From positions 164,300,001 to 164,364,000 of the forward strand of contig CM126208.1 in NCBI GenBank assembly GCA_052327205.1: a stretch of 64,000 bases of DNA. Direction: 5' to 3'. The notes under the pieces are model-generated. The model made no database searches. It saw only the letters and a list, made by a program, of their open reading frames with translations, and was not told the DNA's origin. The stretch comes from Somniosus microcephalus. Its lineage: Eukaryota. Shown here piece by piece: positions 10,256 through 46,710 of this stretch (positions are counted from its first letter, which is position 1; every line of letters starts with the position of its first letter). A program made the position numbers and the translations under genes.

Positions 10256-10266
10256 TGGCGACGAGG
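10256..10266 (+). promoter_or_regulatory. Primer-binding site complementary to tRNA-Ser(GCU) 3' end
   Basis: TGGCGACGAGG one base after the 5' LTR; matches the ...CCTCGTCGCCA end of vertebrate tRNA-Ser(GCU); same motif at 23130-23140 (-). Confidence 0.75.
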
Positions 10267-14872: not shown

Positions 14873-17159
14873 ATGGACTATTTCCATTAATGTGCATGTT
14901 AAAAGTGTTAACTGTTAATTGAATGTTATGGTACTGTTAATCTAAAAGGGGAGGAATTGTAGTGTATGTACCTTTAAGAGAGAACTACTTTTACAGCTCC
15001 TGTATACTGTAGTACCGGCAGTGACCACACCTGTATATAAGCCCTGAGCAGGGATCTGTACTGTTGGTTTTTAGGCTACCCTCATCCAGTAAACACCTGT
15101 TGATTGTTAATCTGCAGTCTCCGTCTATTTATTGAAGAACACCATACCTTAAGATTCACGGATTTAACAGGGTCAAGGACAGAATCTATTTGGTTAGAGT
15201 TAAGAAACAATAGAGGTGCCATTACACTACTAGGTGTATTCTATACACCACCAATGACTTGGACTTGGGTGTACAGGGCACAATTAAAAAATTTGCAGAT
15301 GGCTCTAAACTTGGAAGTATAGTGAACAGTGAGGAGGATGGTGATAAACTTCAAGAGGACATAAACAGGCTGGTGGAATGAGTTGACACGTTGCAGATGA
15401 AATCTAATGCAGAAACATGCGAAGTGATACATTTTGGTAGGAAGAACGAGGAGAGGCAATATAATCTAAAGGGTACAATACTAAAGGGGGTGCATGAACA
15501 TAGCGACCTGGGGGTATATGGACACAAACCATTGAAGGTGGCAGGGCAGGTTGAGAAAGTGGTTAAAAAATCATACGGCATCCTGGGCTTCATAAATAGA
15601 GGCATAGAGTACAAAAGCAAGGAAGTTACGATGAATCTTTATAAAACACTGGTTTGGCCTCAACTGGAGTACTGTGTCCAATTCTGGGCACTGCAATTTA
15701 GGAAGGATGTGAAGGCCTTAGAGAGGGTGCAGAAGAGATTTACAGGAATGGTTCCACGGATGAGGGACTTTAGTTACATGGATAGACTGGAGAAGCTGGG
15801 GTTGTTCTCCTTAGAGCAGAGAAGATTGAGAGGAGATTTGATAGAGGTGTTCAGAATCATGAAGGGTCTAGTCAGAGTAGAGAGAAACTGTTCCCATTGG
15901 CAGAAGAGTCGAGAACCAGAGGACACAGATTTAAGGTGATTGGCAGACGAACCAAAGGCGACATGAGGCAAAACTTTCTTACGCAGCGAGTGGTTAGGAT
16001 CTGGAATGCACTGACTGAAAGGGTGGTGGAGGCAGATTCAATCGTGGCTTTTAAAAGGAAATTGGATAAGTACCTGAAGGAAAAAATTTGCAGGTCTACA
16101 GGGACAGGGCGTGGAGTGGGACTAGCTGAAGTGCTCTTGCAGAGAACCGGCACAGGCTTGATGGGCCAAATGGCCTCTTTCTGTGCTGTAACCATTCTAT
16201 GATTCTGTAGAAATTTATGCCACAGAAGGAGGCCATTTGGCCCATCGTGTCTGTGCCGGTCGAAAAAGAGCTATCCAGCCTAATCCTACTTCACAGCTCT
16301 TGGTCCGTGAGGGGTGTGTGGTTGGGTGGGGGTATGGGTGGGGGGGGGGCGGAGGGGCACCCGGGCTGCTGATGTGAAGTTTCCAAACAAAATGATGATA
16401 GATGAATCAGGAGTGGGAAAGGTGTGATAAGTTCAGCCCGGCGATATATAAAATATCAAATCCAAGCCAAGGCTTTTGGAAGAAGCTGAGGCCTTCAAAC
16501 AAAAAGTTTAATAAAGGTATTAAAAGATACAAAAAAACTAATTAATGGATACACTTCGATCATATTATTATGAAATATGTGTTTTGTGAATTTTATATAT
16601 TGCTTATTTTGGACACTAGGGCCTAGAAATTCGATTGCACCCATCAAAAATGGTGGATCAAAATTTTTTTGATAAAGCATATTAAGTAATTCTATTTATT
16701 CATCAATAGACAGTGGTGGTGAAAGTTGATATAGCAAAATTGAATCAGAACTGTTGACACACCAATTTACAATGGAGAAAAGGTGGCACTAAAGTGTGAG
16801 TAAAAATTACATACAACAGGTAATAAGGTTTGTGCACATGAAGTGTGCAACATTTACAACATTTTTAATAAGATATACAGACTTCAGCTGAAGTATTTAT
16901 TTGATTCACATTCAACGGATCCGCCATTTCCGCCACTTCCAGCGTGATCCCACCACCAAACACTTCTACCCCTCCCCTTTCAGCATTTCGAAGGGACCAT
17001 TACATCCACGAAACCCTAGTCCACTCCTTAATCAACCGCAACACCCTCTCCCCTTCCCACAGCACCTTCCCATGCAAGTGCCGAAGTATGGATAATTTAA
17101 TATATTTATGCCTGCCCTTTTACCTCCTCCCTTCCCACCATCCAGGGCCCCTAACACTC

Positions 17160-17402: not shown

Positions 17403-18527
17403 CAGGTGAAACAGAGATTTAATTGTACTTCTTTCAATTTAGTATACTGTACTCGCTGTTCACGATGCAGTCTCCTCGACATTCGGGAGACCAAATGCAG
17501 ATTGGATGACCACTTTGCGGAACACCTCCATTCAGTCTGCAAGCATGACCCTGAGCTTCCGGCCGCTTATCACTTTAATTCTCTGCTCCCGTTTTTTTCA
17601 GACACGGCTGTTGGTAATGATACTGCTATTGCCATTTACACCTCCTCTAGACCCATCTTTTTTTTCTTTATTTGTCCCATTACCATCTCCTTTTGCCTTG
17701 CACCAACATCCCTGTTGTCATTTAATCTCTCCTGCCTTCCACCCTATCACAGACCTTCCCTTTTGTTCTTTCCTCCCCTGCCCCCTTTACATGCCCCTGC
17801 ACTTACTTAAAACCTGTTGGGGGCTAAATTTGGTTGATTTGCACCTCCTATTAGCGCCCTAAGAGGGCACTAACGGGGCGCAAATCAACTAACGCCTGGG
17901 CTCGGCGCCGCTAACGCCGCCCGCGAAATTCAGCAGGAGGTTAGCGGTGGCGCTGCGCTGCCGGCAATGATGTCATCATTGTGTGCAGTGCCCCGCTCGT
18001 ACCCCGGCTGTAATATTGGGTGGCGCCTCCCGACTTACCGCCGGACGCTATGTCCGCCGGGGTCAGGGGGACGACCTGCGGCGGGGGCGGCGCTAGTCAA
18101 AGGGGAGGTGGCTGGCAGCCATTTTTGTTGCTGGCTGCCAGCCAGCACCTGCCCCCGTTGCTGTCCCCGGCCCCGTGAAGCCCCCCGCGGGGTGCTGGCT
18201 GCTCCCCATGAGCCCAGCACTCCTCTTTGTTACGTCCGTGTATAATCAGACACAGACTGCGGAGAACGGTACAAACGGTGTTTACTCAACGTGGCTCAGA
18301 ATGCAACTGAACTGTACAGATTACTACTCAACGTTATATACAGGTGTGGTCACTGCCGGTACTACAGTATACATGAGCTGTAAAAAGTAGTTCCCCCCTT
18401 AAAGGTACATACATTACAATTCCTCCCCTTTTAGATTAACAGTACCATAACACTCATTTAACAATTAAATATCAAACTAATTACAATTAACACTTTTAAC
18501 ATGCAACATTGGCTGAAAATAGTCTAT

Positions 18528-21170
18528 TTATAAATTCAGTCTTTGGGGAGGCTTCCTGATCCTTTCTGGATAGCGCCTTTCCCGAGTGTCTTGCTCTTGG
18601 TGCGGAGGCGATTCTGGCCCCCTGTCGTCGGTTGGTTCATCAGCTTCCGATGCTACTGTTTCTGGGGTAGATGCTACCTGTACGTCGGGTTCATCACCAG
18701 GTACGTATGGGCGAGGCATGGGGTTGACTTGTTCCTGTGACTCTAGGATCTGGTCAGCATGGCGTCTCACGATGCTCTCCCCAACGTCCACTGTGTACAT
18801 TAGTGGGCCCTGCTGTGTGCATATCGTTCCTGGCTGCCATTTTTCTGTTCGGTAGTCGCGGGCCAAGACTGGTTGCCCTACATTGAAGCTCCTTGTTGGC
18901 TTCTCATGGATGTGCTGGAATTGCCTACTCTCAACATCTCTTCGTACGTTTGGTCTGAGCAAATCCAGGCGAGATCTTAACCTTCGGTTAAAGGACATCA
19001 TGGCTGGGGGCTGGTTGGTGACTGCATGTGTCGCATTCCGATAGGCGAACAGGAAATTGTCCACCTTGTGCTGCAGCGGAATGTTGTCATTGTACATAGT
19101 CTTTATTGCCTTCTTAAAGGTTTGTACGAACCTCTCAGCCAACCATTTGTGGCTGGATGATACGGGGCGGATGTGTAATGCCTTACCCCATTCTTTTTCA
19201 AGAACCTCCGGAACCCTTCGGACACAAACTGTGGTCCGTTGTCGGAGCAAATCTGTTCTGGCAAGCCATTCCTGGCAAAAATGGTCCGTAGGACTGCAAT
19301 AGTTTTCTCCGTGGTGGTGGAGGACATTTTGATGACCTCAGGCCATTTCGAGTGCGCATCCACGGCTATTAAAAACATTGAGTCCATGAATGGACCAGCA
19401 AAATCAATATGCACCCGTTGCCATGGAGATGAGGGCCGCTCCCATGGGTGTAGAGGGGCCTGTGGTGGTGCATTTTGGACTTTCTGGCATCCTGAGCAGC
19501 TCTTGGTCAGGTCCTCGATTTGTTTATCGATTCCCGGCCACCACACATAAGCCCTGGCTAGGCTTTTCATTTTTACCCCTCCCAGATGACCCTCATGAAG
19601 CTCATTGAGCACTCTATCCCTTAACTTGGGTGGAATTACCACTCGGGATCCACACATCAAGGTCCCCCGGCACACTGACAGCTGTTCTCTTCTTGTCGAG
19701 AATGCTGGCAACAGTGAGTCACCATGTGCTGGCGATCCCTTCACCGTCAAATCATATACCCGAGGCAGTGTCGGGTCATTTCGGGTTTCCTTTTCGATAC
19801 AAGCGTTAGTTACCGGTAGGTATTCAACTATAGTCGAATGGAATATTTCGACAGGATCCACTGCTGGTGCTTCCTCCGCAGTAGGCAGTGGCAGGCGTGA
19901 TAGCCCATCAGCATTTCCATGCTGTTTCGTGCCCTTATATTCAATCTCATAGTGGTGCGCCCCCAGAAAAAGTGACCATCTTTGTAGTCGTTGCGCAGTC
20001 ATCACCGGAACGCCCTTCTTCGGATTAAAAATGGAGACAAGAGGCTGGTGATCAGTCAGCAAGGTGAATTTCTGCCCGTGCAGATAGTGATTGAACTTTT
20101 TCACTCCCCCCACTAGGCTGAGGGCCTCCCTGTCAATCTGGGCGTAGTTACGCTCGGCTGAGGTTAGTGATCGTGATGCAAAGGCTATTGGCCTCTCTGA
20201 GCCGTCCGAGAATTTGTGCGACAGCACCACTCCAATGCCGTAGGGTGACGCATCACATGCCAACCGAATTGGTAATGCTGGGTTGTAATGGGCCAATACC
20301 TCTTTCGATGTGATTAGTGTTTTGCTCTTCTGGAAAGCTCGTCTACATTCGTCACTCCACTTCCATGGCACCCCTGTTTGCAGTAGGGTGTTCAGTGGGT
20401 GTAGTATTGTAGACAAATTTGGCAAAAACTTATGGTAGTAGTTTACCAGCTCGAGGAACGACCTCAGTTGTGACACATTTTCCGGTGCTGGAGCCTTGAC
20501 TACTGCCTCAATCTTCTCAGGGGAATTATGTAACCCCTCTTTATCGATAACGTGGCCACAATATGAGATCTGTTTTCTAAAAAACTCACATTTGGGGCGG
20601 TTAGCTCAGAGCCCATATTCCTGCAATCTAGTGAGCACCTGCTCCAGGTTGGCAAGTTGATCACTGTCATTTTCGCCCGTGACCAGGATGTCGTCCAAAT
20701 AACACTGGGTCCCTGGGATCCCTTGCAGGACTTGTTCCATTGCCCTCTGCCAAATAGCCGGAGCTGATGCTACCCCGAATACCAGCTGGTTGTATTGGTA
20801 GAGACCTTTATGGGTGTTGATTGTGAGGTATTTTTTTGATGCTTCTTCTACCTCCATTTGCAGATACGCCTGGGCCAGATCAATCTTAGTGAAGCGTTTC
20901 CCTCCAGATAGCGAGGCGAAAATATCTTCAATCCGCGGAAGTGGATATTGTACGGTGTGAAGTACCGGGTTCACTGTTACCTTAAAGTCCCCACAGATGC
21001 GAACCTTCCTTGGTTCCCCAGGCGTGCTGCTCAACGACTTTTTCATCACAGGGACGATGGGTGTAGCCCACTCGCTCCAGTCTACCTTGGACAGTACACC
21101 TGAACGTTCCAGACTCTCCAGCTCTGCTTCAACGGCTGGGCGGATCGCATAAGGTACTGGTCTGGCCTTA
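18528..21170 (-). pseudogene. RT-RNase H-integrase of element B, disrupted
   Basis: YLDD in 20606-21049; stop at 20606; RNase H/integrase in 19103-20476; 1-bp deletion near 19145 relative to element A. Confidence 0.92.
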
Positions 21171-22479
21171 AAAATTTTGGACTTGCGTTTTCTTCAATTT
21201 TAATCGTCGCTGTCATGCCTTTTAGTGTTCCCAGTCCTTGCTGGAACACTTCTTTCGCGTCAGTTAGGATCTTTGACAGTCGCCCAGGTGTGACGTCGTC
21301 ATCCTTTTTGTCAGCCACAGTCAGTGCCTGTATGGAATGCCAATCCAGTTGTATTTTCCGGATCCATTCACGTCCCAGTAATGGTGGTCCTCCATCTTGC
21401 AATACATACAGGTCTAGTTTTGGTGTTTCCTTACCGTTATATATAACGGTCACCCTTATTTTTCCTTTTGGGTAGACTTTTTGCCCCGTGTACGTCTTCA
21501 AAATAATTTGTGTGTCTCTCAAGGGTATGTGTGAGAATAGCCGCTCGTAGTCCCGTCGGTTTATGGCTGTTAAAGCTGATCCTGTGTCCAATTCCATCTT
21601 TACCTGGACTCCTGCTATCTTGAGAGTGACCCAAATGGTTCGGTGATCCTCTGTTGTGATCACATTATGTAGTTTCAGACAACTCAGTTCCCTGCTTTCG
21701 GAGTCGTTATCACTCTTTTGTTCGTCTGAACTATTCTCCGTTATCTTATGTACCTTCTTGTACTTTCCTTTGGTCAGTTTCTTATTGCTGGTTTTCTTTC
21801 CCGACCTGCAGACTCGTGCTATGTGGCCTACTTTTCCACACTGTCTGCACACTTTGTCTTTGAACCAGCAATCATTATGGTCGTGTGTTGTTCTGCCGCA
21901 GCGATAGCACTTCTCTGTTCCATATGACATTTCGTTTGTGCCATATTCTTGCGGTCTCTGTTGTATCTCTGCAGTGCCCCGTGCTTCTGCTTCATATGAT
22001 ACCGCAATGCTGAAAGCCTTTTCCAGCGTAAGGTCCTTTTCAGATAAAAGCCGTTTCTGGGTTCCTTCACTTTGAAGCCCACACACAAACTTGTCCCTTA
22101 AAGTATCTGCTAGTCCCGTTCCAAACTGGCAGTGTTTCGATAGCTTGCGCAGTTCCGTTAAATACTCAGCATTACTTTCATCTTTATGCTGGTTCCTTTT
22201 GTGAAACTTAAATCTTTCTGCTATCAGCAGCAGTGTGGGGTTTAAGTGGTCCTGTAGGATTGACACTATGTTTTCAAAATCCTTTTCTACTGGCTTCTCT
22301 GGGGTTACTAGGTTTCGTAGTAAGCCATACGTTTTTGCACCCATTGAATTCAACAATACCAGCGCTTTCTTGTCATCTGGCACTTCATTCGCCTTGCAGT
22401 ATACTTCTATGCGTTCGACATATGTCATCCAATCTTCGACTTCCTTGTCGAATGCTGTGATACTGCCACTCTTCGGCAT
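21082..22479 (-). CDS. Gag-protease ORF of element B
   Basis: Closely similar to 10938-12359; two CCHC knuckles; LDTGS protease. Confidence 0.9.
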   Translation of the reverse strand: MPKSGSITAFDKEVEDWMTYVERIEVYCKANEVPDDKKALVLLNSMGAKTYGLLRNLVTPEKPVEKDFENIVSILQDHLNPTLLLIAERFKFHKRNQHKDESNAEYLTELRKLSKHCQFGTGLADTLRDKFVCGLQSEGTQKRLLSEKDLTLEKAFSIAVSYEAEARGTAEIQQRPQEYGTNEMSYGTEKCYRCGRTTHDHNDCWFKDKVCRQCGKVGHIARVCRSGKKTSNKKLTKGKYKKVHKITENSSDEQKSDNDSESRELSCLKLHNVITTEDHRTIWVTLKIAGVQVKMELDTGSALTAINRRDYERLFSHIPLRDTQIILKTYTGQKVYPKGKIRVTVIYNGKETPKLDLYVLQDGGPPLLGREWIRKIQLDWHSIQALTVADKKDDDVTPGRLSKILTDAKEVFQQGLGTLKGMTATIKIEENASPKFLRPDQYLMRSAQPLKQSWRVWNVQVYCPR

Positions 22480-24011
22480 TTTTGGGTGTGGTTAGACTGG
22501 CTTAAAATGGCGTCTCTCGCGCTTTCCTTTCTTCCCCGCTGCGGCTTAAAATGGCGTCTCCCGCGCTGCCACCAACGCCGCTCTCGACGGTCCTCGTCGC
22601 AAATGGCGACGCCCTGTGGGTTTCGTGTACTGCTCCTGCGCTGCTGCCAATGCCGCTCTCTGCGGTCCTTGTGGCAATGGCAGCGCCTCGCGTTTTCCTG
22701 CGCGCCTCTCTCCCCCGTTTGATGCTGCTTGGCCCTTGAACACCGGCTGCGCTCTGCTCTCTCTCGTCTCTCTCACCCGTTGACGCCGCTCGGTCCTGAA
22801 CACCAGCTGCGCCCTGCGCGCTCTGCCCTCTCTCTCTTCCCCGTCGACGCTGCTCGGCCTTTTTCTGTGCTGCTCGGTCGGGCTCTAGCCCGCTGCTGTC
22901 CGGGAAGGGTCTGCGCAGTGCCTGTTGCCAGCCCGTTTCGCTGGACCACCGTGACTGGAAAGCCAAGCCTGGCTCTCGACAGCCTCCCCTGCGATGCTCA
23001 AATCTCCGCTGGATGACTGGGCGGTTGCCCGTAGTCGACGCCCGTGCTTCTGGACTTGACCTTCTTCCACTGTTCTCCAGGAGCGAATCCCCGGGAGGTG
23101 ATGCAGAGTTGCAGGTAGGTTCGAACCTTCCTCGTCGCCAATGTTACGTCCGTGTATAATCAGACACAGACTGCGGAGAACGGTACAAACGGTGTTTACT
23201 CAACGTGGCTCAGACTGCAACTGAACTGTACAGATTACTACTCAACGTTATATACAGGTGTGGTCACTGCTGGTACTACAGTATACATGAGCTGTAAAAA
23301 GTAGTTCCCCCCCTTAAAGGTACATACATTACACTCTTGAGTGCCGGGTTCATTTGCCGGCACTCCCGATCCCTGGTGGCCCAGCTGGGCGCCAGGATGT
23401 GCTGCGCCAGGCCCCTCCCCTTTAATAAGGGGAGGAAGGCCTGCAGTACTGCGGTGCGACGTGTGGCACTGTGGCACGTAGCACCACGATATTGGCTCGC
23501 AGCACCCAAAGAGGGACGCGGGGCACTTCCAGTAGTGCCCCTCCTCCCTCTCGGGTTGCTACCTGGGAAAATCGGCTGCGGGGGCGCTAACTTTTTAGGG
23601 GCACTAAAATTAGTGCCCCGGCGAAGCTAGCACCCCAAAGGGGGCGCTACCAATTTTTACCCCGTTATATCTCTAACTTTTTCCCATTCTGATGAAAGGT
23701 CATTGACCTGAAGTGTTAACTCTGTTTCTCTCACCACAGATACTGTCTGACCTGCTGAGCATTTCCAGCATTTTCAGTTTTTATTTCAGATTTCCAGCAT
23801 CCGCAGTATTTTGCTTTTATGTATTTGATAAAACGCAAAGCTTTCTTGCTCCTGTGTAATTTAAATCCTTGCTTAACTAGCTCACTCAGGTTTTCTATAT
23901 AGGTCTATTATAGCCAAATTCTCAACTACCATTGCAAGCTCTTTGAATATGTGAAGGCCTAGAAGCAAGTTGCCCAGTGATTATTTTGGCCCACCTGTTG
24001 GGTAGGTCTAA

Positions 24012-31264: not shown

Positions 31265-34200
31265 GGCCTAGAAATTCGGTGCGTAGCGCCTGTTGTTTGG
31301 GCACTATGGATGCCGAATTAGGACCAAATTGGCATCTGAACAGGGCGTGCACACTTCTGTTGTGGGCCACGCTCGATGCCATCTTGGTGAGGGCGGTAGG
31401 GTGGCCATTAGGAGCGTGTGCTAGAAGTACGGTAAGTAGACAGATTGTGACGTCAATCAACGTGCAACGCTGATTTGATGCCAGCGCCGCCATTTTCGTC
31501 ATCATCGCTGGAGCTAATGCTCTGTGTTACTCTCGCAGTAGCAAGGACCGCCCCCCCCCCCCCAACTGTGCTATTTAAAGGGACCATCACCAACTTTCAG
31601 GTAACTTGCTTTTTGATTTCTAGTGGCTCTGAGTAAGTTTGTGAAAGTGTTTGGAGCTTTCTAGAGTTATTTAAAGTTGGTGAGGTGACAGGGAATGGTG
31701 CTGCACGTGGAGAAGGCCTTGCTTCTGACTTCAAGGGTTCTGGTCAGACCATTTGTTCCCAGTCATTGGTGCTCTAGTTGTCATCCACCTTGGCCTGCAG
31801 CATGACAAGGAGATGGAGCAGTGGCAGCAAAGAAGAGGACCAACTGCTCGCAGCGGGAGGAGGAGGACGGGGAGAAGGGCTCCCAGCAGGAGGCCTTACC
31901 CACCTAGGGACTTCCGAGTGCAATTTTCTTACCTCAACCTGAGCCAGGAGCAGTGTGTGAAGTGTCTGTGCTTTATGAAGGAGGCGCTCACAGGACTCTG
32001 CAACCTCTTACAATCAGACCTGCCAGTGGCTGTGAAGGAGACTGTGGCCCTGAATTCCTCGCATCAGAATCCTTCCAGGCTGGAGCAGGCAATATCTGTA
32101 ACATTTCACAGTTTACCGTCCACTGCTGCATAAGAGAGGTGACAGATGCTCTTTATGCCAGGAGAGGGGACTTCATTGTCTTCTCTCTGATCAGAGTGAA
32201 GCAGATGGAGTGTGCACGTGGCTTTGCCAGGATAGCAGACTTCCCCATGGTGCAGGGCGCCATCGATTGCATGCATGTGGCTTTGCGGGCACCGTAATGC
32301 TTAGATGAAACGCAACTGCAAACTCGCTGAATGTGCAGTTGGTGTGTGACCATGATGGTGAATGTCCAGTATGCTGGCAGCAGTCATGATGCTTTCATTC
32401 TGTGCCAGTCCGCAGCTCCCTCAGTTTTTGAGCCACCAAGACAAACCAGAGGGTGGCTACTGGGCGACAAGGCTATCCCTTGACCACCTGGCTCAAGACT
32501 CCGCTCTGCAACCCAACCACACATGGCTAGAATGTGTCCAGCGAGAGCCATGATGCCACATAATACATCATAGAGCAGACTATTGATGCCCTTAAACAAT
32601 GGTTCTGCTGCCTGGACCACTCTGGAGAAGTCTTACAGTACTCAACTGAAGCATAACTTCCCCTCCCTTTGTATTGCAGCCTCCTTGAGATCAAGGCCAA
32701 CGCTCATTAGCCTTTTTGATTTGATTTTTGTATCTGTTCACTAGCTTTTAATGATTTGTGTACTTGGACTCCCAATCTCTTCGCTCCCCTACAGCTCTTA
32801 GCTTCTTACCATTTTGAAAATACTCCGATTTATTTTTTCTGCTGTCACCCTGAGAGAGGACAGCAGGTTTGTCCTCCACGGAGCCAATGCCACGCCCCTG
32901 GGGAGGAGCCTCAGCAGTCCTAGTAATCTGCTGGCGTGCTGTGACACCCTGCAAGCCCTTGTCAACACTGGTAAACCCAACCATGATGGCAGCAGTCTGT
33001 GCTTGTATGGCAGCAAGCTGGGCTTGCATGACTTCAGTCTGAGCTTCAATTGCAGCACTCAGACATTGAGTGGCTTCTTCTTGTGTTGCAATGAAAGCTG
33101 AAACATTGGCCATCAGACGCCGCATCATGGTTGGGTCCACAAGTGCACTAATATATCTGTCCACCCTTTCCACACTGGAAAGGATGGGCTCCAAGCTCTG
33201 CACAAAGCCCTGTGCAAGGTTGGAGTTGGACTCCTCCATGCTCCTTGACATTGCATTTAAGATTTCTGGCAGGACTGCCAATGCACCCATCAGCTTTGTT
33301 CTGTAGGCTGCCTCATCGAATTCCTCACTTGAGTCCTGTGCAGCAGAACTCATGTTTTTTTAATTCGCTCCTGGGATGTGGGTGTCGCTGGCAAGTGCAA
33401 CATTTATTGTCCATCCCTAATTGCCCTTGTGAAGGTGGTGGTGAGCGGCCTTCTTGAACCGCTGCCGTCCGTGAGGTGAAGGTACTTCCATCGTGCTGTT
33501 AGGGAGGGAGTTCCTCCAGGGAGCTGGCACCTCTGCTACCCCTTCCCCCTGCCCTGCCTGTAGGCCACTTGTGCTGGATGTCTCACCACATGCAGATCCC
33601 GCATCTAACCTATCCTCTAAAGTACGCAGAGTGTCAGTATCTAAGCTGGTGGCTGGGAGTGTGAAATCAAGTGATGGTGCTGTGTCTGTAACCTGGCCGG
33701 GCACTGGTGGATAAATGCTGGCCTTGCCAGTGACGCCCACATCCCATCTGCAGCTTGTAAATGAGAAGAATTTGTGAGATGAGGGGGAAGTGGAACATAA
33801 CAGGAGGCAGCCCCTGCTGCCTACTGCTATGTGCCACCATCTCCTGGAAAAAAGAGGGAAGTGTGTCAGTGAGTGCCGTACAATCTGTTTGGGTGACATT
33901 CCTGTCATGGTTGAGTAGCTGACAGTGTATGCAATCTGTGAGATGTGGGTGTGAGGCTTGCAGTAATGGTAAGTGTGTGAGGGTGAGGTGAAGCTATGAA
34001 TGTGAGGTATGAGTTGTGATTGATGGAGATTATTGGTAGATGAGTGATGGGTGTGTGGTGCATTGAGCGGTGTGTGAGTCTAGTGGTTCTGTTGTAAGGA
34101 TATGGCATTGGAAGATTAATTCACTAACCTTGACCACTCGTGTGAGGTCATTAAACTTTTTGCAGCACTGCATCTAGGTCCACAGGGCTACACTGCTTGC

Positions 34201-34660
34201 ACTGACCATGATGACTATGTGCTCCCATTGCTTTTTCCGATTTTGCCTGGAGGGCCTCCTGCAGATACACAACCTCTCTCCTGCTGTCTAACTCCTGCAC
34301 CAAGGCCTCCAGTGCTGCATCCGAGAACCTTGGAGCACACTTTCTCCCCTGTTGTTCCATCAGTACTTCATCCTGCTCACACTCTGTTCCCGAGCCAGTT
34401 GAATCACCTGCTGCAGTCAGAATATACCTCCCCTTTAAGAGGTGCAGGCTAGCTTTAATTGGTGCTAGCCAAGCACGAACTTGGGCCCCCTGCTGAGCGT
34501 GCAGCCACTCAGCAGCGTGTTCAGCACTGGGCTGCTCACCACAGTCATTATAATTAGCAGGCAGCACGAAGTTGGCGTGCTGCCTGCATCACTTTGAACG
34601 AGCATGGGTTGATCACACATCACGATTGCCACACCCGTTTTTGGGGACAATCCAATTTCT
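31265..34660 (+). mobile_element. Degenerate two-gene PIF/Harbinger transposon (transposase +, Myb/SANT -)
   Basis: Left end GGCCTAGAAATTC identical to 59604; RRPYPP, FSYLNLS, ISQFTVHCCIREVT, FPMVQGAIDC (31770-32640); Myb-like APRFSDAALEALVQE on the minus strand (~34150-34360); small CR1 and SINE pieces inside. Confidence 0.85.
31770..32645 (+). pseudogene. Harbinger (HARBI1-like) transposase pseudogene
   Basis: Frameshifted pieces colinear with 62316-63443, including GAIDC, GDK and CLDHSG. Confidence 0.85.
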
Positions 34661-35228
34661 ATGTGGGGAATCGCAGCTGTGAACCAACGTCCTAATTTCC
34701 TGTGGCTCATGTATTAGGTAGGGTTAGACCAGAAGAATATAGGGGGCAAAATTGGGTGCCTTTGCGCCTCTCGTTAGCGCCCCGGGGGGCACTGATGGGG
34801 TGTAAATGGCTTTGCGACCAGGTACAGCGCTGACATCGACTCCCGCCATATTTGGCGTGAGTTTTGTGGCAGCGTTACGGCATTGCACCCCAATCTCCTT
34901 CGCCCGGAGACCGTGATGTCATCGCCATGCACATCACCCCGGTAATGCCTTGGACCCAAAATTGACTTCCGCCCACTGACAGCTGCAGGAGGCATGCATC
35001 GGGTGGCCGGCTGATTTGAGGGTGATGATTAAAGGTGAGGTGGCCGAGGTAAGTAAAAAAAAACTTACCTTGTTGCAGTTTTTTTCGCGGGTTACTGCCC
35101 GCAATTGATCAGCCTGGCACTCTGCTTGAGTGCCGGGCTGATCGCGTGGGATCGCGGCTGCCTTGGTTGTCCAGGTAGGTACTTTTAAATTGCAGAGCCT
35201 GCAGCGATGGCCCTTCCCTTTAAGGGAG

Positions 35229-38200
35229 TGTAATGAAATCTGTTTGCCTTGGTCCTGTATTCATTTTGCACTCGTGTATATTACCCTCCCCGACTGTGTA
35301 TAGTTTCACTTCCTCTTTCCCGACTAACCTGGGAGGTTCCAGGTCTTGGCTCTTGGCTCCGCCCCTGACTTCTCTTACATAAAGATCCCAGGATCTGTAT
35401 GACTCATTCCTGTGACCCAGTCGGCGTGTTGAGATGTTAGCTCTGATCTTAGTGATTAAAAGCCAACTTGTTTAAGTCTACAACTTCTAGTTTTGTGGTT
35501 ATTGAAGGCCCATCAATTTTAATCACTAAAGAATACTAGGATGGATCGACTCCTAAAACCAGAGCGTCTGGACTTGGATCCACATTCTGCTGAAGCATCA
35601 AACCAATTTGGACACTGGCTCAAATGCTTCGAACTCTTCGCGGGGGCCTCATCCGCTAGCGAGGTAGATAAACTGAGTCTACTGACTACTCGCGTAAGTC
35701 ATCGGATTTATTCGTTCATCCGGGACGCCACCTCTTACACGGAGGCCATCACTATCCTGAAGGCCCAATACCAGAGGCCGGTAAACGAAGTGTACGCCAG
35801 ACATCTGCTGGCTACACGCAGGCAGCGACCAGAGGAATCAATGGACGATTTCTTACAGGGCCTAAAGGACCTGGTCCGGGACTGTAACTGCAAGGCCGTG
35901 ACGGCCAACGCGTACTCTGACGAATTGGTCCGCGATTCCTTCATCACGTGCCTCAAATCGAATTATATCCGGCAGAGACTGCTGGAGAAGGAGGTCCTGG
36001 ACTTAAAAAAGGCAGTGGCCACTGCGCGATCGCTGGACGTGGCCCAGAAAAACTCTGATTTTATTCTTCCGGCCATGCGGCCCTCACCGCCTCGTGCGCG
36101 CCGAGGGGGCCGCCATCTTGGAATCAGCCATCTTCCCCATCCAGGTCTCAGACCAGCTCTACGCCGCCGGAGTCCCCACACAGAAGTTCACCCAGGAGTC
36201 CTGCTACAGCGGCAATGTCTCGAGGCCCGAAATGCTACTTCTGCGGCCAGGCCAAGCACCCCAGACAACGATGCCCAGCGAAGGATGCTACATGCTTCAA
36301 ATGTAAGAAAAAGGGGCATTTTAGCAAAGTCTGCAGGGGGAATCCGATTTCCAACTCCGTCACCGCCTCGTGCATGCCGTGCGGGCCGCCATCTTGGGAT
36401 CCACCATCTTTTCCCGACTCAACGGCCGCCCAGGGCCCAACAGTGGCTTCGATCACGGTGGATCAATCCAGGCCACACCCGTTGACAAAATCCATGATGG
36501 ACATACAGGTAAACGGGAATTTAACGAAATGTTTAATTGACTGTGGGAGTACCGAGAGTTTTATCCACCCTAGCCTGGTACGGCGGCACTCATTAACGGT
36601 AACCCCCACACGGAGCAGAATTGCTATGGCTGCTAAGCCCCACACTTCGGACATTTTGGGCTACTGTGTGGTAACACTGACTGTAAAAGGCACGGACTAC
36701 AAGGATTTTAAACTCCTTGTGATGCCAGAACTCTGTGTTAATGTAATCTTGGGCCTGGACTTCCAGTGCCACCACGAAAGTGTCACGCTAGCATATGGCG
36801 GGTCCCAGCCGCCACTCACAGTCTGTGGCCTATCAACCTTAAAAATCAGCCCACCCTCTTTATTCGCTAATCTCGCTCTGAACTGTAGGCCCATAGCGAC
36901 CAAAAGTAGACGGTACAGTCTGGAAGACAGACACTTTATCAAGGCGGAAGTGGACAGACTCCTGCGGGAAGGCATTATTGAATGCAGTACCAGCCCGTGG
37001 CGTGCCCAAGTAGTCATAGTTAAAAATAGCGAGAAGAAATGGATGGTAATTGACTACAGCCAGACTGTTAATATTTATACCTAGCTGGACGCCTACCCTT
37101 TACCCCGCATATCAGAAATGGTCAACCAGATTGCGCAATACCGAGTCTTCTCGACTATCGACCTCAAATCCGCGTATCACCAGCTCCCCATTAGAACGGA
37201 GGACCGCCCATACACCGCCTTCGAGGCGAACGGGCACCTCTACCATTTTCTCAGAGTGCCCTTCGGGGTAACAAATGGGGTCTCGGTCTTCCAACGTGAG
37301 ATGGACCGCATGGTTGACGAGAATAAACTACAAGCTACCTACCCCTATCTGGACAATGTCACTATCTGCGGGCACAACCAGCAAGACCACGATCTAAATC
37401 TTGCGAGATTTTTAAAAACTGCCCTAAAGCTGAATCTAACCTACAACGAAGACAAATGTGTCTTCAACACAACCCGTCTCTGTATCCTCGGCTGTGTGGT
37501 GGAAGATGGGGTAATTGGACCGGACCCTGACCGATTACGCCCCCTAAAGGAACTGCCCCTGCCACACAATCCCAAAGCTTTAAAAAGGTGCCTGGGATTT
37601 TTTTCGTATTATGCCCAATGGGTGCCCAATTACTCTGATAAGGCCCGACCCCTCATTAAATCGACGTCCTTCCCACTATCAGCTGAAGCTCGGGAGGCTT
37701 TCACCAGTATTAAACAGGACATTGAAAGGGCTGCAGTGTGTGCAGTGGACGAATGCATTCCCTTTCAAGTCGAAAGCGATGCGTCAGACTTTGCCTTAGC
37801 TGCGACCCTCAATCAGGCTGGGAGACCTGTGGCCTTCTTCTCCCGAACCCTTCAGGGACCTGAAATCAGGCACTCTTCTGTCGAGAAGGAGGCACAGGCT
37901 ATAGTGGAGGCAGTGCGGCACTGGAGACACTACCTAGCCGGCAAACGTTTCACCCTGCTCACCGACCAGCGGTCGGTGGCTTTCATGTTTAATAACAAAC
38001 AAAGGGGGAAAATCAAGAATGACAAAATACTCAGGTGGAGGATCGAACTATCCATGTTCAACTATGATATTATGTACAGGCCGGGAGCCCTTAATGAACC
38101 CCCAGACGCCCTATCGCGGGGAATGTGTGCCAGCATTCATACGGACAAATTACAGGGTCTCCACAACGACCTCTGTCACCCAGGGGTCACCCGACTATAC

Positions 38201-39578
38201 CATTTTATAAAGTCCCGCAATCTGCCCCACTCCATCGAGGAGGTCAGGACAATGACCAGAGCCTGCCGCATCTGTGCGGAATGCAAGCCTCGTTTCTACA
38301 GGTCTGACCGTGCACACCTTATCAAAGCCACACGGCCATTCGAGCGTCTAAGTCTGGACTTCAAGGGACCCCTTCCCTCTGCCGACCGTAACGTATACTT
38401 CCTCAATATCATTGATGAATATTCCCGCTTCCCCTTCGCCATTCCCTGCCCAGACATGACCAGTGCCACGGTCATCAAGTGTCTCTGTAATCTATTCTGC
38501 ATGTTTGGCATGCCGAACTACATACACAGCGATAGGGGGACGTCATTCATGAGTGACGAGCTGCACCAGTTCTTGCTCTCGAAGGGGATAGCCACTAGCA
38601 GAACCACTAGCTACAACCCCCGGGGTAATGGGCAAGTGGAAAGGGAGAATGCTACTGTTTGGAAGGCTGTCACGTTAGCCTTAAAGTCAAAAGGCCTTCC
38701 GACCTCCCGCTGGCAGGAAGTCCTCCCAGATGTGCTCCACTCCATAAGGTCTCTGTTATGTACTGCCACTAACGCCACCCCTCACGAAAAGATGTTCATT
38801 TTCCCCCGGAAATCCACCTCGGGCATATCTCTACCCGCGTGGCTGACGTTTCCGGGGACAGTACTATTGCGGAAGCACGTGAGAGGCCATAAAACGGACC
38901 CCCTTGTGGAAAAGGTACAGCTCCTCCATGCAAACCCTCAGTACGCCTATATCGAATACTCTGACGGGCGAGAGGGCACTGTTTCCATAAAAGACCTCGC
39001 TCCCTCGGGGAGCGGAGAGAACGATGGGAGACTACCCGATGAAGACCTACACTACAAAGAGACAGGACGCCCAGAGGTATCAATACCCAACTTTAACCTG
39101 GAGGACACTGCAGATAACCTGGAAGACACTGCGGAGGCCCGGACAGCGGAGGAACCAGAATCCATTCCCCTAGAGGCACCCCAACCGGCTTTGCGCCGAT
39201 CACTGAGAACTGCAAAACCTCCTGACAGACTCACTTATACCAACTTTTAAGAAACATCACCCCGATGGACGAAATCTATAGAAGGGGTGAATGTAATGAA
39301 ATCTGTTTGCCTTGGTCCTGTATTCATTTTGCACTCGTGTATATTACCCTCCCCGACTGTGTATAGTTTCACTTCCTCTTTCCCGACTAACCTGGGAGGT
39401 TCCAGGTCTTGGCTCTTGGCTCCGCCCCTGACTTCTCTTACATAAAGATCCCAGGATCTGTATGACTCATTCCTGTGAACCAGTTGGCGTGTTGTGATGT
39501 TAGCTCTGATCTTAGTGATTAAAAGCCAACTTGTTTAAGTCTATAACTTCTAGTTTTGTGGTTATTGAAGGCCCATCA
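35229..39578 (+). mobile_element. Full-length Gypsy LTR retrotransposon C (no tRNA PBS)
   Basis: 287-bp LTRs 35229-35515 and 39292-39578 (4 substitutions seen); TSD GGGAG; empty site TTTAAGGGAGGGAAGG in sister array units; PPT AGAAGGGGTGAA. Confidence 0.97.
35541..39250 (+). pseudogene. gag-pol of element C with one frameshift (~36060) and one stop (37082-37084)
   Basis: Gag, two CCHC knuckles, protease LIDCGS, RT YLDN, RNase H ESDAS, integrase HxxxCH/CxxC, LDFKG, SDRG, VER. Confidence 0.92.
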
Positions 39579-40094
39579 GGGAGGGAAGGAGCCTTTGAAC
39601 GCGGCAGTGCTGCACGGCCCAGTGTGCAGTGCTGCTGAAGTCTCCGCCCCGCCTGCTGCCGATTGTGCTCCACGAAGGAAGTGGAATGTCAGTATCTGAG
39701 CTGGTGGCTGGGAGTGTGAAATCAAGTGATGGTGCTGTGTCTGTAACCTGGCCGGGCACTGGTAGATAAATGCTGGCCTTGCCAGCAACGCCCACATCCC
39801 ATCTGCAGCTTGTAAATCAGAAGAGTTTGTGAAATGAGGGGGAAGTGGAACATAACAGAAGGCAGCCCCTGCTGCCTATTGTTATGTGCCACCTTCTCCT
39901 GGAAAAAAGAGGGAAGTGTGTCAGTGAGTGTCGTACAATCTGTTTAGGTGGTATTCCTGTCATGGTGGAATTGCTGACAGTGTGTCCAATCTGTGAGATG
40001 TGGGTGTGAGGCTTGCAGCAGTGGTAAGTGTGTGAGGGTGAGTTGAAGCTATGAATGTGAGGTATGAGTTGTGATTGATGGAGATTATTGGTAG

Positions 40095-41515
40095 GAAACT
40101 ATAGACCAGTTAGCCTAACATCTGTGGTTGGCAAAATGTTGGAGTCCATTATTAAGGAAACAGTAACAGAGCATTTGGATAAACATAATTTAATAGGACA
40201 GAGTCAGCATGGTTTTACGAAGGGGAAGTCATGTTTGACAAATTTGCTCGAATTCTTTGAGGATGTAACATACAAGGTGGATAAAGGGGAACCAGTGGAT
40301 GTAGTGTATTTGGACTTCCAAAAGGCATTTGACAAGGTTCCACACAAAAGATTGCTGATCAAGATAAAAAATCACGGGATTGGGGGTAATATACTGGCAT
40401 GGGTGGAAGATTGGCTATCTAACAGAAAACAAAGAGTTGGGATAAATGGTTTGTTCTCGGGCTGGCAATCAGTAACTAGTGGTGTTCCGCAGAGGTCAGT
40501 GCTGGGACCCTAACTCTTTACAATCTATATTAATGATTTGGAGGAAGGGACCGAGCGCAACATATCCAAGTTTGCCGATGATACAAAGATGGGAGGGAAA
40601 GCAGTGAGTGAGGAGGACATAAAAAACCTGCAAAAGGACATAGACAGGCTGGGTGAGTGGGCAGAGATTTGGCAGATGCAATATAATGTTGGAAAGTGTG
40701 AGGTTATGCACTTTGGCAGAAAAAAATCAAAGAGCAAGTTATTATCTAAATGGAGAGAAACTGCAAAGTGCTACAGTACAAAGGGATCTGGGGGTCCTGG
40801 TGCATGAAACACAAAAAGTTAGTATGCAGGTGCAGTAGGTGATCAGGAAGGCCAATGGAATCTTGGCTTTTATTGCAAGGGGGATGGAGTATAAAAACAG
40901 GGAAGTCTTGCTGCAGTTATACAGGGTATTGGTGAGACCACACCTGGAATACTGCGTGCAGTTTTGTTTTCCATATTTAAGAAAAGATATACTTGCTCTC
41001 GAGGCGGTTCAGAGAAGGTTCACTCGGTTGATTCCAGAGATGAGGGGGTTGACGTATGAGGAAAGGTTGAGTAGGTTGGGACTCTACTCATTGAAGTCCA
41101 GAAGAATGAGAGGCGATCTTATCAAAACATATAAGATTGTGAGGGGGCTTGATCGGGTGGATGCGGTGAGGATGTTTCCACTGATGGGTGAGACTAGAAC
41201 TAGGGGGCATAATCTTAGAATAAGGGGCTGCCCTTTCAAAACTGAGATGAGGAGAAACTTCTTCACTCAGAGGGTAGTAAATCTATGGAATTTGCTACCC
41301 CAGAGAGCTGTGGAAGCTGCAACATTAAATAAATTTAAAATGGAGATAGACATTTTCCTAGCAGATAAGGGAATTAGGGGTTACGGGGAGAGGGCAGGGA
41401 AGTGGATGTGAGTCTAGATTCAGATCAGCCATGATCCTATTGAATGGCGGAGCAGGCCCGAGGGGCCGTATGGCCTACTCCTGCTCCTATTTCTTATGTT
41501 CTTATGTTCTTATGT
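40095..41515 (+). mobile_element. CR1 LINE, 5'-truncated, inserted in array unit 2
   Basis: NYRPVSLTS, KFADD, RPHLEYC; (TTCTTATG)n tail; host TTATTGGTAGG|TGAGTG. Confidence 0.95.
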
Positions 41516-42876
41516 TAGGTGAGTGATGGGGGGTGTGGTGCATTGAGCAGTGTATGAGTCTAGTGGTTCCGTAGTAAGGATATGGCATTGGAAGATTAAT
41601 TCACTAACCTTGACCACTCGTGTGAGATCATTAAACTTTTTGCAGCACTGCATCTAGGTCCACGGGGCTACACTGCTGGCATTGACCATGGTGACTATGT
41701 GCTCTCATTGCTTTTTCCAATTTTGCCTGGAGGGCCTCCTGCAGATACACAACCTCTCTCCTCCTGTCTAACTCCTGCACCAAGGCCTCCAGTGCTGCAT
41801 CCGAGAACCTTGGAGCACACTTTCTCCCCTGTTGTTCCATCGGTACTTCTTCCTGCTCACACTCTGTTCCCCAGCCAGTTGAATCACCTGCTGCAGTCAG
41901 AATATACCTCCCCTTTAAGAGGTGGAGGCTAGCTTTAATTGGTGCTAGCCAAGCACGAACTTGAGCACTCTGCTGAGCGTGCAGCCACTCAGCAGCGTGT
42001 TCAGCACTGGGCTGCTCACCACAATCATTATAATTAACAGGCAGCACGAAGTTGGCGTGCTGCCTGCATCACTTTGAACGAGCATGGGTTGATCACACAT
42101 CACGATCCCCACACTCATTTTCGGGGGCAATCCAATTTCTATGTGGGGAATCACAGCTGTGAACCAACGTCCTAATTTCCTGTGGCTCATGTATTAGGTA
42201 GGGTTAGACCAGAAGAATATAGGGGCCGAAATTGGGTGCCTTTGCACCTCTCGTTAGCGCCCCCGGGGGGCACTGATGGGGCGTAAATGGCTTTGCGACC
42301 AGGTACAGCGTTGACATCGACTCCCGCCATATTCGGCGTGAGTTTTGTGGCAGCGTTACGGCGTTGCACCCCAATCTCCTTTGCCCGGAGACCATGATGT
42401 CATTGGAGTGCGCATCGCCCCGGTAATGCCTTGGACCCGAAATTGACTTCCACCCACTGACAACTGCAGGAGGCATGCATCGGGTGGCCGGCTGCTTCGG
42501 GGGCGATGATTAAAGGTGAGGTGGCCGAGGTAAGTAAAAAAAAACTTACCTTTCTTGTTGCAGTTTTTTTCGCGGGTTACTGCCCGCTATTGATCAGCCT
42601 GACACTCTGCTTGAGTGCCGGGCTGATCGCACGGGATCGCGGCTGCCTTGGTTGTCCAGGTAGGTACTTTTAAATTGCAGAGCCTGCAGCGATGGCCCTT
42701 CCCTTTAAGGGAGGGAAGGAACCTTTGAACGCGGCAGTGCTGCACGGCCTAGTGGGCAGGGCTGCTGAAATCTCCGCCCCGCCTGCTGCCGATTACGCTC
42801 AAAGAAGGAAGTGGAATGTCAGTATCTGAGCTGGTGGCTGGGAGTGTGAAATCAAGTGATGGTGCTGTGTTTGTAA

Positions 42877-43237
42877 TAACAACAGAAAATGCTGGAAAAA
42901 CTCAGCAGATCAGGCAACATCCGTGGAGAGGAATTTGAGTTGATGTTTCGGGTCGAAACCCTTCTTCAAAACTGGAAAGAAAAGAAAATAGATCGAAGGC
43001 AAGGCTGCGATCGAACAAAAGAGACAATAAAAGTTATTCGAAGCCAGACGAGATGCTAATAGGCCCGTGGAGACAAAAGGCAACTGAGATTAGTTGTGAA
43101 GTGTACTGGCAGGTAAGAGACAGCTGCCAGGTACGTCAACTCAAATTTCTCTCCACGGATGTTGCCTGACCTGCTGAGTTTTTCCAGCATTTTCTGTTGT
43201 TATTTCGGATTTCCAGCATCTGCAGTATTTTGCTATT
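42877..43237. mobile_element. Penelope-type pLTR insertion with inverted 5' arm, in array unit 3
   Basis: ~70-bp inverted arms (42875-42945 / 43135-43204) similar to 23715-23820; 15-bp TSD GTGCTGTGT(T/C)TGTAA at 42862-42876 and 43238-43252. Confidence 0.8.
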
Positions 43238-46007
43238 GTGCTGTGTCTGTAACCTGGCCAGGCACTGGTAGATAAATGCTGGCCTTGCCAGCGACGCCCA
43301 CATCCCATCTGCAGCTTGTAAATCAGAAGAGTTTGTGAAATGAGGGGGAAGTGGAACATAACAGAAGGCAGCCCCTGCTGCCTATTGCTTTGTGCCACCT
43401 TCTCCTGGAAAAAAGAGGGAAGTGTGTCAGTGAGTGTCGTACAATCTGTTTAGGTGGTATTCCTGTCATGGTGGAATTGCTGACAGTGTGTCCAATCTGT
43501 GAGATGTGGGTGTGAGGCTTGCAGCAGTGGTAAGTGTGTGAGGGTGAGTTGAAGCTATGAATGTGAGGAATGAGTTGTGATTGATGGAGATTATTGGTAG
43601 GTGAGTGATGGGGTGTGTGGTGCATTGAGCAGTGTGTGAGTCTAGTGGTTCCGTTGTAAGGATATGGCATTGGAAGCTTAATTCACTAACCTTGACCACT
43701 CGTGTGAGGTCATTAAACTGTTTGCAGCACTGCATCTAGGTCCACGGGGCTACACTGCTGGCATTGACCATGATGACTATGTGCTCCCATTGCTTTTTCC
43801 GATTTTGCCTGGAAGGCCTCCTGCAGATACACAACCTCTCTCCTCCTGTTTAACTCCTGCACCAAGGCCTCCAGTGCTGCATCCGAGAACCTTGGAGCAC
43901 ACTTTCTCCCCTGTTGTTCCATCAGTACTTCATCCTGCTCACACTCTGTTCCCCAGCCAGTTGAATCACCTGCTGCAGTCAGAATATACCTCCCCTTTAA
44001 GAGGTGCAGGCTAGCTTTAATTGGTGCTAGCCAAGCATGAACTTGGGCCCCCTGCTGAGCGTGCAGCCACTCAGCAGCGTGTTCAGCACTGGGCTGCTCA
44101 CCGCAATCATTATAATTAACAGGCAGCACGAAGTTGGCGTGCTGCCTGCATCACTTTGAACGGGCATGGGTTGATCACACATCGCGATTCCCACACCCGT
44201 TTTCGGGGGCAAATCAATTTCTATGTGGGGAATCGCAGCTGTGAACCAACGTCCTAATTTCCTGTGGCTCATGTATTAGGTAGGGTTAGACCAGAAGAAT
44301 ATAGGGGGCGACAATGGGTGCCTTTGCGCCTCTCGTTAGCGCCCCCGGGGGGCACTGATGGGGCGTAAATGGCTTTGCGACCAGGTGCAGCGCTGACATC
44401 AACTCCCGCCATATTTGGCGTGAGTTTTGTGGCAGCGTTACGGCATTGCACCCCAATCTCCTTCGCCCGGAGACCGTGATGTCATCGGCGTGCGCATCGC
44501 CCCGGTAATGCCTGGGCCCGAAATTGACTTCCGCCCACTGACAGCTGCAGGAGGCATGCATCGGGTGGCCGGTTGCTTCGGGGGTGATGATTAATGGTGA
44601 GGTGGCCGACGTAAGTTAATAAAAACTTACCTTTCTTGTTGCGGTTTTTTTCACGGGTTACTGCCCGCAATCGATCAGCCTGGCACTCTGCTTGAGTGCC
44701 GGGCTGATCGCGCGGGATCGCCGCTGCCTTGGTGGTCTGGGTAGGTACTTTTAAATTGCAGAGCCTGCAGCGATGGCCCTTCCCTATAAGGGAGGGAAGG
44801 AGCCTTTGAACGCGGCAGTGCTGCACGGCCCAGTGCGCAGTGCTGCTGAAGTCTCCGCCCCGCCTGCTGCCGATTACGCTCAAAGAAGGAAGTGGAATGT
44901 CAGTATCTGAGCTGGTGGCTGGGAGTGTGAAATCAAGTGATGGTGCTGTGTCTGTAACCTGGCCAGGCACTGGTAGATAAATGCTGGCCTTGCCAGCGAC
45001 ACCCACATCCCATCTGCAGCTTGTAAATCAGAAGAGTTTGTGAAATGAGGGGGAAGTGGAACTTAACAGAAGGCAGCCCCTGCTGCCTATTGTTATGTGC
45101 CACCTTCTCCTGGAAAAAAGAGGGAAGTGTGTCAGTGAGTGTCGTACAATCTGTTTAGGTGGTATTCCTGTCATGGTGGAATTGCTGACAGTGTGTCCAA
45201 TCTGTGAGATGTGGGTGTGAGGCTTGCAGCAGTGGTAAGAGTGTGAGGGTGAGTTGAAGCTATGAATGTGAGGTATGAGTTGTGATTGATGGAGATTATT
45301 GGTAGGTGAGTGATGGGTGTGTGGTGCATTGAGCAGTGTGTGAGTCTAGTGGTTCCGTTGTAAGGATATGGCATTGGAAGCTTAATTCACTAACCTTGAC
45401 CACTCGTGTGAGGTCATTAAACTGTTTGCAGCACTGCATCTAGGTCCACGGGGCTACACTGCTGGCATTGACCATGATGACTATGTGCTCCCATTGCTTT
45501 TTCCGATTTTGCCTGGAAGGCCTCCTGCAGATACACAACCTCTCTCCTCCTGTTTAACTCCTGCACCAAGGCCTCCAGTGCTGCATCCGAGAACCTTGGA
45601 GCACACTTGCTCCCCTGTTGTTCCATCAGTACTTCTTCCTGCTCACACTCTGTTCCCCAGCCAGTTGAATCACCTGCTGCAGTCAGAATAAACCTCCCCT
45701 TTAAGAGGTGCAGGCTAGCTTTAATTGGTGCTAGCCAAGCACGAACTTGGGCCCCCTGCTGAGCGTGCAGCCACTCAGCAGTGTGTTCAGCACTGGGCTG
45801 CTCACCACAATCATTATAATTAACAGGCAGCACGAAGTTGGCGTGCTGCCTGCATCACTTTGAACGAGCATGGGTTGATCACACATCACGATCCCCACAC
45901 CCGTTTTCGGGGGCAATCCAATTTCTATGTGGGGAATCACAGCTGTGAACCAACGTCCTAATTTCCTGTGGCTCATGTATTAGGTAGGGTTAGACCAGAA
46001 GAATATA

Positions 46008-46710
46008 GGGGGCGAAATTGGGTGCCTTTGCGTCTCTCGTTAGCGCCCCCGGGGGGCACTGATGGGGCGTAAATGGTTTTGCGACCAGGTACAGCGCTGA
46101 CATCAACTCCCGCCATATTCGTCGTGAGTTTTGTGGCAGCGTTACGGCATTGCACCCCAATCTCCTTCGCCCGGAGACCGTGATGTCATCGCCATGCACA
46201 TCACCCCGGTAATGCCTTGGACCCAAAATTGACTTCCGCCCACTGACAGCTGCAGGAGGCATGCATCGGGTGGCTGGTTGCTTCGGGGGTGATGATTAAA
46301 GGTGAGGTGGCCGACGTAATTTAAAAAAAACTTACCTTTCTTGTTGTATTTCTTTCACAGGTTCCTGCCCGCAATCGATCAGCCTGTCACTCTGCTTGAG
46401 TGCCGGGCTGATCGCGTGGGATCGCGACTGCCTTGGTGGTCCAGGTAGGTACTTTTTAAATTGCAGAGCCTGCAGCGATGGCCCTTCCCTTTAAGGGAGG
46501 GAAGGAGCCTTTGAACGCGGCAGTGCTGCATGGCCCAGTGTGCAGCGCTGCTGAAATCTCTGCCCCGCCTGCTGCCGATTGCGCTCCACTTCCTTCTTTT
46601 TGCGCAAACGGTGAATTTTTCAAAAGTTTGAAATTGTTAGTGCCTGGTGCTAAATTTTCAAACTTTTAAAAATTAGCGCCCCAAATGGGGCGATAGTGAA
46701 TTTTTCCTCC
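46008..46710. mobile_element. Complete Harbinger-type MITE (703 bp), related to 17819-23663
   Basis: Ends GGGGGCGAAATT / AATTTTTCCTCC; shared internal motifs GCACTC..GAGTGCCGGG and CCCTTTAAGGGAGG; left parts repeated at 34742, ~42222 and ~44303. Confidence 0.75.

Follow-up and report, generated by a model that had tools for sequence, protein, structure and literature searches.

A non-chromoviral Ty3/Gypsy retrotransposon of a shark genome that probably primes reverse transcription from its own RNA

Self-priming in known retrotransposons

Self-priming of reverse transcription has been described for the Tf1/sushi group and for Tcn1, and it was proposed for the plant Copia elements Houba and Osr-1 (PMC6317226). 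Tf1/sushi members are chromoviruses in which the 5' end of the element RNA is the primer and the RNA adopts a pretzel fold (PMC10085805; PMC4600332). For Tf1, it was reported that the self-primer is cut by reverse transcriptase (RT) (PMC5341516) and that the cDNA retains a copied primer binding site (PBS) (PMC11042837).

The element described here resembles Tf1 and Tf2 of Schizosaccharomyces pombe, Tj1 and the Tf1/sushi elements, Tcn1 included, which are Ty3/Gypsy elements with a PBS complementary to their own long terminal repeat (LTR); its PBS likewise complements its own LTR and not the 3' end of a tRNA. The predicted cutting of the primer from the element's own RNA and the keeping of a primer copy on the cDNA ends are further points of likeness to Tf1/sushi. 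The element works like Tf1, yet it lies outside the Tf1/sushi group: its clade is without a chromodomain, is separate on the tree and has a spacer of 1 nt. Moreover, the segment that pairs would start ~43-60 nt into the predicted RNA and in most cases closes with a poly(A) signal, and the paired part of the predicted self-primer, as placed by the ends of junction arms and by TATA spacing, would not be the RNA 5' end. The TAR lineage (Houba and Osr-1, plant Ty1/Copia) is similar in that self-priming was predicted from LTR/PBS complementarity (PMC6317226). It differs in its Copia domain order and its plant hosts, and it is unrelated.

Mag and K02A2.6-like Gypsy elements share short LTRs, a 5-bp duplication and the lack of a chromodomain with the present element, and the Mag lineage has a double CCHC knuckle in Gag, as this element does. 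They differ in that K02A2.6-like proteins form a separate supported branch with two TGG-PBS elements of the same window, in a tree that is unrooted and holds no named Mag reference. Saci2/lennie and CsRn1 of flatworms are also non-chromoviral animal Gypsy elements, and Saci2 has a single gag-pol frame; its PBS sequences are given in Figure S6 of PMC12471100. However, the Gag motif of Saci-2 is CCCH and its duplications measure 4 bp, in contrast to the double CCHC and 5 bp found here, lennie has a tRNA-Leu PBS, and CsRn1 combines a CHCC Gag motif with a tRNA-Trp PBS, whereas the present element has no TGG. Saci2/lennie was ruled out as the identity of the clade by Gag motif, duplication length and PBS.

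Surveys of molluscs and annelids name many clades, and the PBS goes unmentioned in the accessible main text; likewise, the accessible portions of PMC6934838, PMC3601003 and PMC10886601 hold nothing on the present clade. The literature covered, with subscription papers and Repbase notes mostly outside its scope, gave no report of self-priming in this clade. The clade may already carry the name Cigr-1 or MolGy/PolGy; none of four peptides searched had a match in the accessible supplements of PMC6238403.

The element and its copies

The window, that is, the whole stretch of DNA analysed, comprises 64,000 nucleotides of the genome of Somniosus microcephalus. The element spans 35229-39578 (Table 1), and its LTRs show 4 differences over 287 bp. 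It is a young Ty3/Gypsy element, with LTRs, a polypurine tract, a target duplication and the order PR-RT-RH-IN. In a Pfam search, the domains followed the Gypsy order, with protease, RT, RNase H and integrase; no chromodomain was among them, which bore out the remark of the earlier note that none is evident after the integrase.

Table 1. Features of the element, in positions of the window
Feature	Position	Strand	Remark
Target-site duplication GGGAG, left	35224..35228	+	same 5 bp at 39579-39583
5' LTR, 287 bp, TG...CA	35229..35515	+
Predicted promoter: GC box (35356-35364) and TATA-like box (35376-35384)	35356..35384	+
Initiator-like motif, predicted transcription start ~35406	35404..35410	+	3/6 family-A short arms end at LTR 174-179
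Predicted self-primer, ~56 nt, from RNA 5' end to cut	35406..35461	+	inferred from arm ends and cut-site junctions
13-nt PBS partner including ATTAAA (35455-35460); predicted cut 35461/35462	35449..35461	+
GT-rich tract of U5 that may act as downstream poly(A) element	35490..35500	+	from sequence; function inferred
1-nt spacer A (35516) and 13-nt self-complementary PBS (35517-35529)	35516..35529	+
gag, first part; frame change inside gag in the window copy	35541..36485	+
double CCHC knuckle of gag, protease and first part of RT; closes at in-frame stop	36059..37084	+
RT, RNase H, integrase; without chromodomain	37085..39250	+
Polypurine tract	39280..39291	+
3' LTR, 287 bp	39292..39578	+
Target-site duplication GGGAG, right	39579..39583	+

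The window copy is broken by the frame change within gag and by the in-frame stop at 37082-37084. Elsewhere in the 6.4-Gb genome, copies with an intact frame have a single open frame of 1242 codons, and the 150 matches listed genome-wide are 97-100% identical across the first 170 Gag residues. Single variant copies have been amplified locally, at G000:C28 12.1-13.8 Mb (10 matches, of which the 3 that were read share one internal deletion) and at G000:C40 21-53 Mb (16 matches).

A dispersed repeat of at least 1.5 kb occurs in four copies, one of which encloses the element (33600-35228 and 39579-46700). Also present in the window are two related Gypsy elements whose LTRs are 98% identical and whose PBS is of the TGG type (10042-15170 on the plus strand and ~18228-23333 on the minus strand), a hAT transposase remnant (7445-8579), a DDE_Tnp_4 transposase (62316-63476) and LINE RT fragments (3525-4727 and 58171-59307).

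Pairing of the PBS with the LTR

The earlier note had claimed that the 5' LTR is followed by no TGG tRNA-type PBS and that the PBS position perfectly complements the poly(A)-signal region of the same LTR. Both observations hold. After a single A comes a 13-nt sequence (35517-35529) that is the exact reverse complement, in 13/13 nt, of 35449-35461; this partner contains the ATTAAA hexamer and ends 54 nt before the LTR end. None of 500 dinucleotide shuffles of the window LTR reached 13 nt (mean 4.7, maximum 10), and the two other Gypsy elements of the window, which served as a control, showed self-complementarity of just 4 nt. Among 22 copies of the window family with a 5' LTR, the match was perfect in 17 and carried one substitution in 5; in 30 further loci of the 150 listed, it measured 13 nt in 26 and 10 and 12 nt in two, the remaining two being rearranged (the window copy is counted in both sets). 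An excess of G at PBS+14 in intact copies (6 G vs 4 C) was judged not meaningful. When 35406-35545 was folded, the helix formed, with a stability no better than that of shuffles (z 0.1).

Mature tRNAs end in CCA and need TGG, which counts against a host tRNA as the primer. The longest match of the PBS to host tRNAs was 6 nt, among the 4 distinct tRNAs of 2 types that were found, and there was no Rfam match. A tandem array of tRNA genes with a period of ~1.6 kb lies at G000:C24 42.9-43.2 Mb.

Covariation across the clade

The LTRs of 19 clade elements were delimited, namely 7 families of the shark genome and 12 metagenome elements. A perfect match of 12-17 nt between PBS and own LTR, placed 1 nt past the LTR, was found in 17/19 (0-1 of 500 shuffles each), and the other two (L102 and L134) have one mismatch in 16. 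Of the 20 clade rows, one (L082) was left out, since the two repeats that had been paired there represent an inverted LTR from a different family. Cognate PBS/LTR pairs matched over 12.6 nt on average, compared with 5.4 nt for 342 non-cognate pairs; the PBS core differs in nearly every family and tracks its own LTR. Compensated changes were seen even within families (L065 vs L069; L172, L189 and L193 vs L171). A blind scan of the region before gag gave a match of at least 10 nt in 23/25 usable metagenome loci, the sample consisting of 80 loci of which 28 had a gag start and 3 of these lacked upstream DNA. The test of LTR/PBS covariation among collected family members that the earlier note had proposed thus found the complementarity conserved, and its proposal of self-priming is backed by this covariation. 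It was concluded that the window element very probably primes reverse transcription from its own RNA.

With positions numbered back from the helix 3' end, G at -10, a terminal AAA and RC after it are shared by all 18 tabulated elements, and all 18 have A/T at -11, which together with the G resembles an initiator. AATAAA or ATTAAA lies within the partner in 12/18 elements, and in 2 of the other 6 a hexamer lies downstream of the cut. With regard to the pretzel fold, a duplex between the PBS and downstream sequence was no better than in shuffles (mean z 0.16, 18 elements); in the same comparison, the stem starting at the cut measured 4.1 bp vs 2.9.

Placement among Gypsy elements

Relatives with 43-77% identity in pol form a distinct group, the named members of which come from a ray, hagfish, crustaceans and insects as well as a sea spider, a snail, flukes and a nematode; no relatives were found in viral contigs. 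Among 50 relatives with more than 40% identity over RT-RH-IN or RH-IN (P0001-P0047, P0049, P0051 and P0054), none had PF00385. In RT-RH trees, the clade came out as a single supported branch, with the sushi-like and the K02A2.6-like proteins placed elsewhere. The RT-RH tree was an LG+G4 quick tree of 30 rows, with no root inferred and no named reference elements; 12 rows make up the clade group, two of them (P0131 and P0049) as protein sequences only. Forcing the clade together with two sushi-like proteins was rejected (AU p=0.0014). The phylogenetic comparison with sushi-like elements suggested in the earlier note therefore sets the clade apart, the two stand-ins having been picked by Pfam domains (DUF4939) and not being named references.

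Junction fossils of reverse transcription

If LTR RNA serves as primer, plus-strand synthesis should now and then read on beyond the PBS, into upstream-LTR complement. Loci with such a junction, in which the LTR end and PBS pass into the complement of the upstream LTR, were found 16 times in the window family (A), 3 times in family B, 68 and a further 14 times in D/E, and in 13 of 22 matches from G (2) and a further family, H (11); the reversed-pattern control of each junction search gave 0. These fossils of reverse transcription are the new element of the present analysis. Most junction arms extend to LTR position 1. Perfect target duplications flank 27/41 full palindromes (A 1/1, D 26/40), so the palindromes existed as linear DNA before integration.

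Two loci (L216 and L393) have ordinary 5' ends with 24 or ~39 nt of upstream-LTR complement inserted after the PBS, followed by normal sequence. In L228 and L256, arms whose end coincides with the predicted start of the RNA run into sequence resembling a SINE/LINE tail, which suggests a jump to a foreign RNA.

The start of the RNA

A TATA-like box lies 73-75 nt upstream of the -11 base in the window family, B, F and G, and 92 nt upstream in D and E; in the sister families B, F and G, the box is TATAAA at the spacing of the window element. Arms that stop short end 25 to 35 nt past the box in 12/25 cases, across families with different box-to-partner distances. This interval was fixed after the first sets, and the later arms were held out: 7/14 of these fall within it (p ~2e-5), distributed as D 1/5 and 0/1, G 1/1 and H 5/7, and the held-out result depends on families H (5/7) and G (1/1). 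In H alone, 5/7 ends lie within 4 nt (0/50,000 simulations); the box of H is non-canonical and was placed by GC-box distance after the ends had been seen, and it precedes a hairpin just upstream that could stall RT. In the window family, the ends of 3/6 arms fall at LTR 174-179, where there is an initiator-like motif with its A at 35406. The sole short arm of family B falls outside the interval. An arm end corresponds to an RNA 5' end, but a second RNA instead of the primer could be its source. In two raw RNA-seq runs of a near relative, the element is covered by a mixture of many copies, and no start, poly(A) tail or site, or cut emerged; no RNA data sets containing the window stretch are listed, and no poly(A)-tailed retrocopy of the element was found.

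The start site well upstream of the partner that the earlier note had put forward thus agrees with the clustering of arm ends ~30 nt past the TATA box, and the window-element RNA likely starts near 35406. Transcription could instead start at the partner itself, with the first 11-13 nt as a short primer like that of Tf1. The invariant G at -10 with its initiator-like A/T at -11 fits such a start, as does the fact that pairing mostly ends at 13 nt. Three more family-A arms, found with another search pattern and outside the 25, stop 1-3 nt past the PBS, as a short primer would predict; with them the count becomes 12/28. A TATA-like box is absent in 10/11 metagenome elements, so their primers may be short, and a short primer may apply to the invertebrate members. 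Against it stand the TATA boxes 73-92 nt upstream in 6/7 shark-genome families tested, the clustered arm ends and the primer copy of ~72 nt in L251 and L256 (see below). The short primer is therefore unlikely, and the long primer is highly likely in the family of the window element.

The site of the cut

Sixty of 118 junction loci (two duplicate pairs included) are cut short on the U5 side. Of these, 4 start exactly at cut+1 and 10 lie within -4..+3 (p 0.0002-0.002, depending on the null). Other ends cluster at +28 (5 loci, apparently inversions at a stem within the loop) and inside the partner (10 loci). The cut after the A run that the earlier note had supposed is matched by the junctions at cut+1, the four exact cases all coming from the sister family D; in the window family, the cut would by homology lie at 35461/35462. 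L251 and L256 contain an LTR copy from 28 or 29 nt past the box to the A run, then the spacer and U5 complement that stops at cut+1; on either side lies other sequence. These two loci are the predicted primer and strong-stop product from end to end.

A second arrangement is priming in trans, in which short transcripts terminated at an LTR poly(A) site would be shortened as far as the A run and would then pair with the PBS on an uncut genomic RNA. It accounts equally for the covariation and the long primer, makes an endonuclease unnecessary and is in keeping with the presence of solo LTRs. An uncut template, however, should give strong-stop DNA reaching to the start site, yet four junctions stop exactly at cut+1, and RC after the cut is conserved in 18/18 elements; priming in trans is therefore quite unlikely.

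The junction loci might also be host DNA rearrangements between the 13-bp inverted repeats and hence uninformative on priming. Simple loop inversions do occur (L234 and L381), and a later insertion can mimic a cut-site end, as in L042, which was rejected as a look-alike that is actually a 4.2-kb insertion. This explanation is highly improbable given the target duplications at both TG...CA ends of 27/41 full palindromes, the clustering of ends at positions set by promoter and cut, and the failure of the absent LTR portions to resume within 10 kb at the loci tested; the covariation, besides, is independent of the junction loci. The weakest alternative, that the helix only regulates polyadenylation or translation and the real primer is a host tRNA half or small RNA, can point to the overlap of the partner with the poly(A) hexamer in 12/18 elements, to half-tRNA primers in Copia lineages (in the accessible part of PMC6317226) and to a tRNA comparison spanning just 4 distinct tRNAs, but it is scarcely credible against a PBS core that differs by family and tracks its own LTR, the lack of an Rfam match, and fossils in which LTR sequence, and not a host RNA, is what adjoins the minus-strand DNA.

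Proposed mechanism

The preferred reading is self-priming by a long primer cut from the front of the element's own RNA. Transcription would begin at ~35406, and 35449-35461 would fold onto the PBS across a 55-nt loop. The RNA would then be cut between 35461 and 35462, at the AAA^RC present in 18/18 elements; by analogy with Tf1, the cutter is somewhat more probably the element's own RNase H than another activity. RT would copy A35516 and U5 back to 35462 and then jump to the 3' R. The primer would later be copied by the plus strand, and the PBS would thus be rewritten from the LTR in each cycle, which would keep PBS and LTR in step. Of all this, the pairing, its covariation and the integrated junctions matching primer plus minus-strand DNA are what was observed. 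Taken whole, a 13-nt self-pairing PBS with a capped primer of ~56 nt from the RNA front is the likely mechanism.

Since the PBS follows only the 5' LTR, the helix can form only there and could plausibly mask the poly(A) signal of that LTR; the chances that the helix hides the signal at the 5' LTR are evenly balanced. Masking as first worded cannot apply to the whole clade, since the partner contains the hexamer in just 12/18 elements and 2 of the other 6 have it downstream of the cut. It is possible, and proposed tentatively, that the clade represents a second independent origin of self-priming in Ty3/Gypsy, spread over many animal phyla, with a capped primer of 50-75 nt that ends in the poly(A) signal and one helix that both makes the primer and blocks polyadenylation at the 5' LTR only. 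Self-priming with a different geometry in a large non-chromoviral animal clade bears on whether tRNA-priming or self-priming came first and on how often primers were switched, and it suggests a simple reason why identical LTRs act differently at the two ends. It would also mean that failed products of reverse transcription that became fixed in a genome reveal the start and cut sites of a retroelement RNA.

For annotation, tools that seek a tRNA PBS will mis-call the clade. A family B tandem with a period of 4110 bp and single shared LTRs (L303, G000:C1:101243000-101252999) resembles the integrase-independent tandems described for Tf1. G000 also contains palindromes of ~410-520 bp, made up of LTR, PBS and inverted U3 and flanked by target duplications (L219, L239, L243, L344 and L372), a class that could be mistaken for MITEs and would yield hairpin RNA if transcribed.
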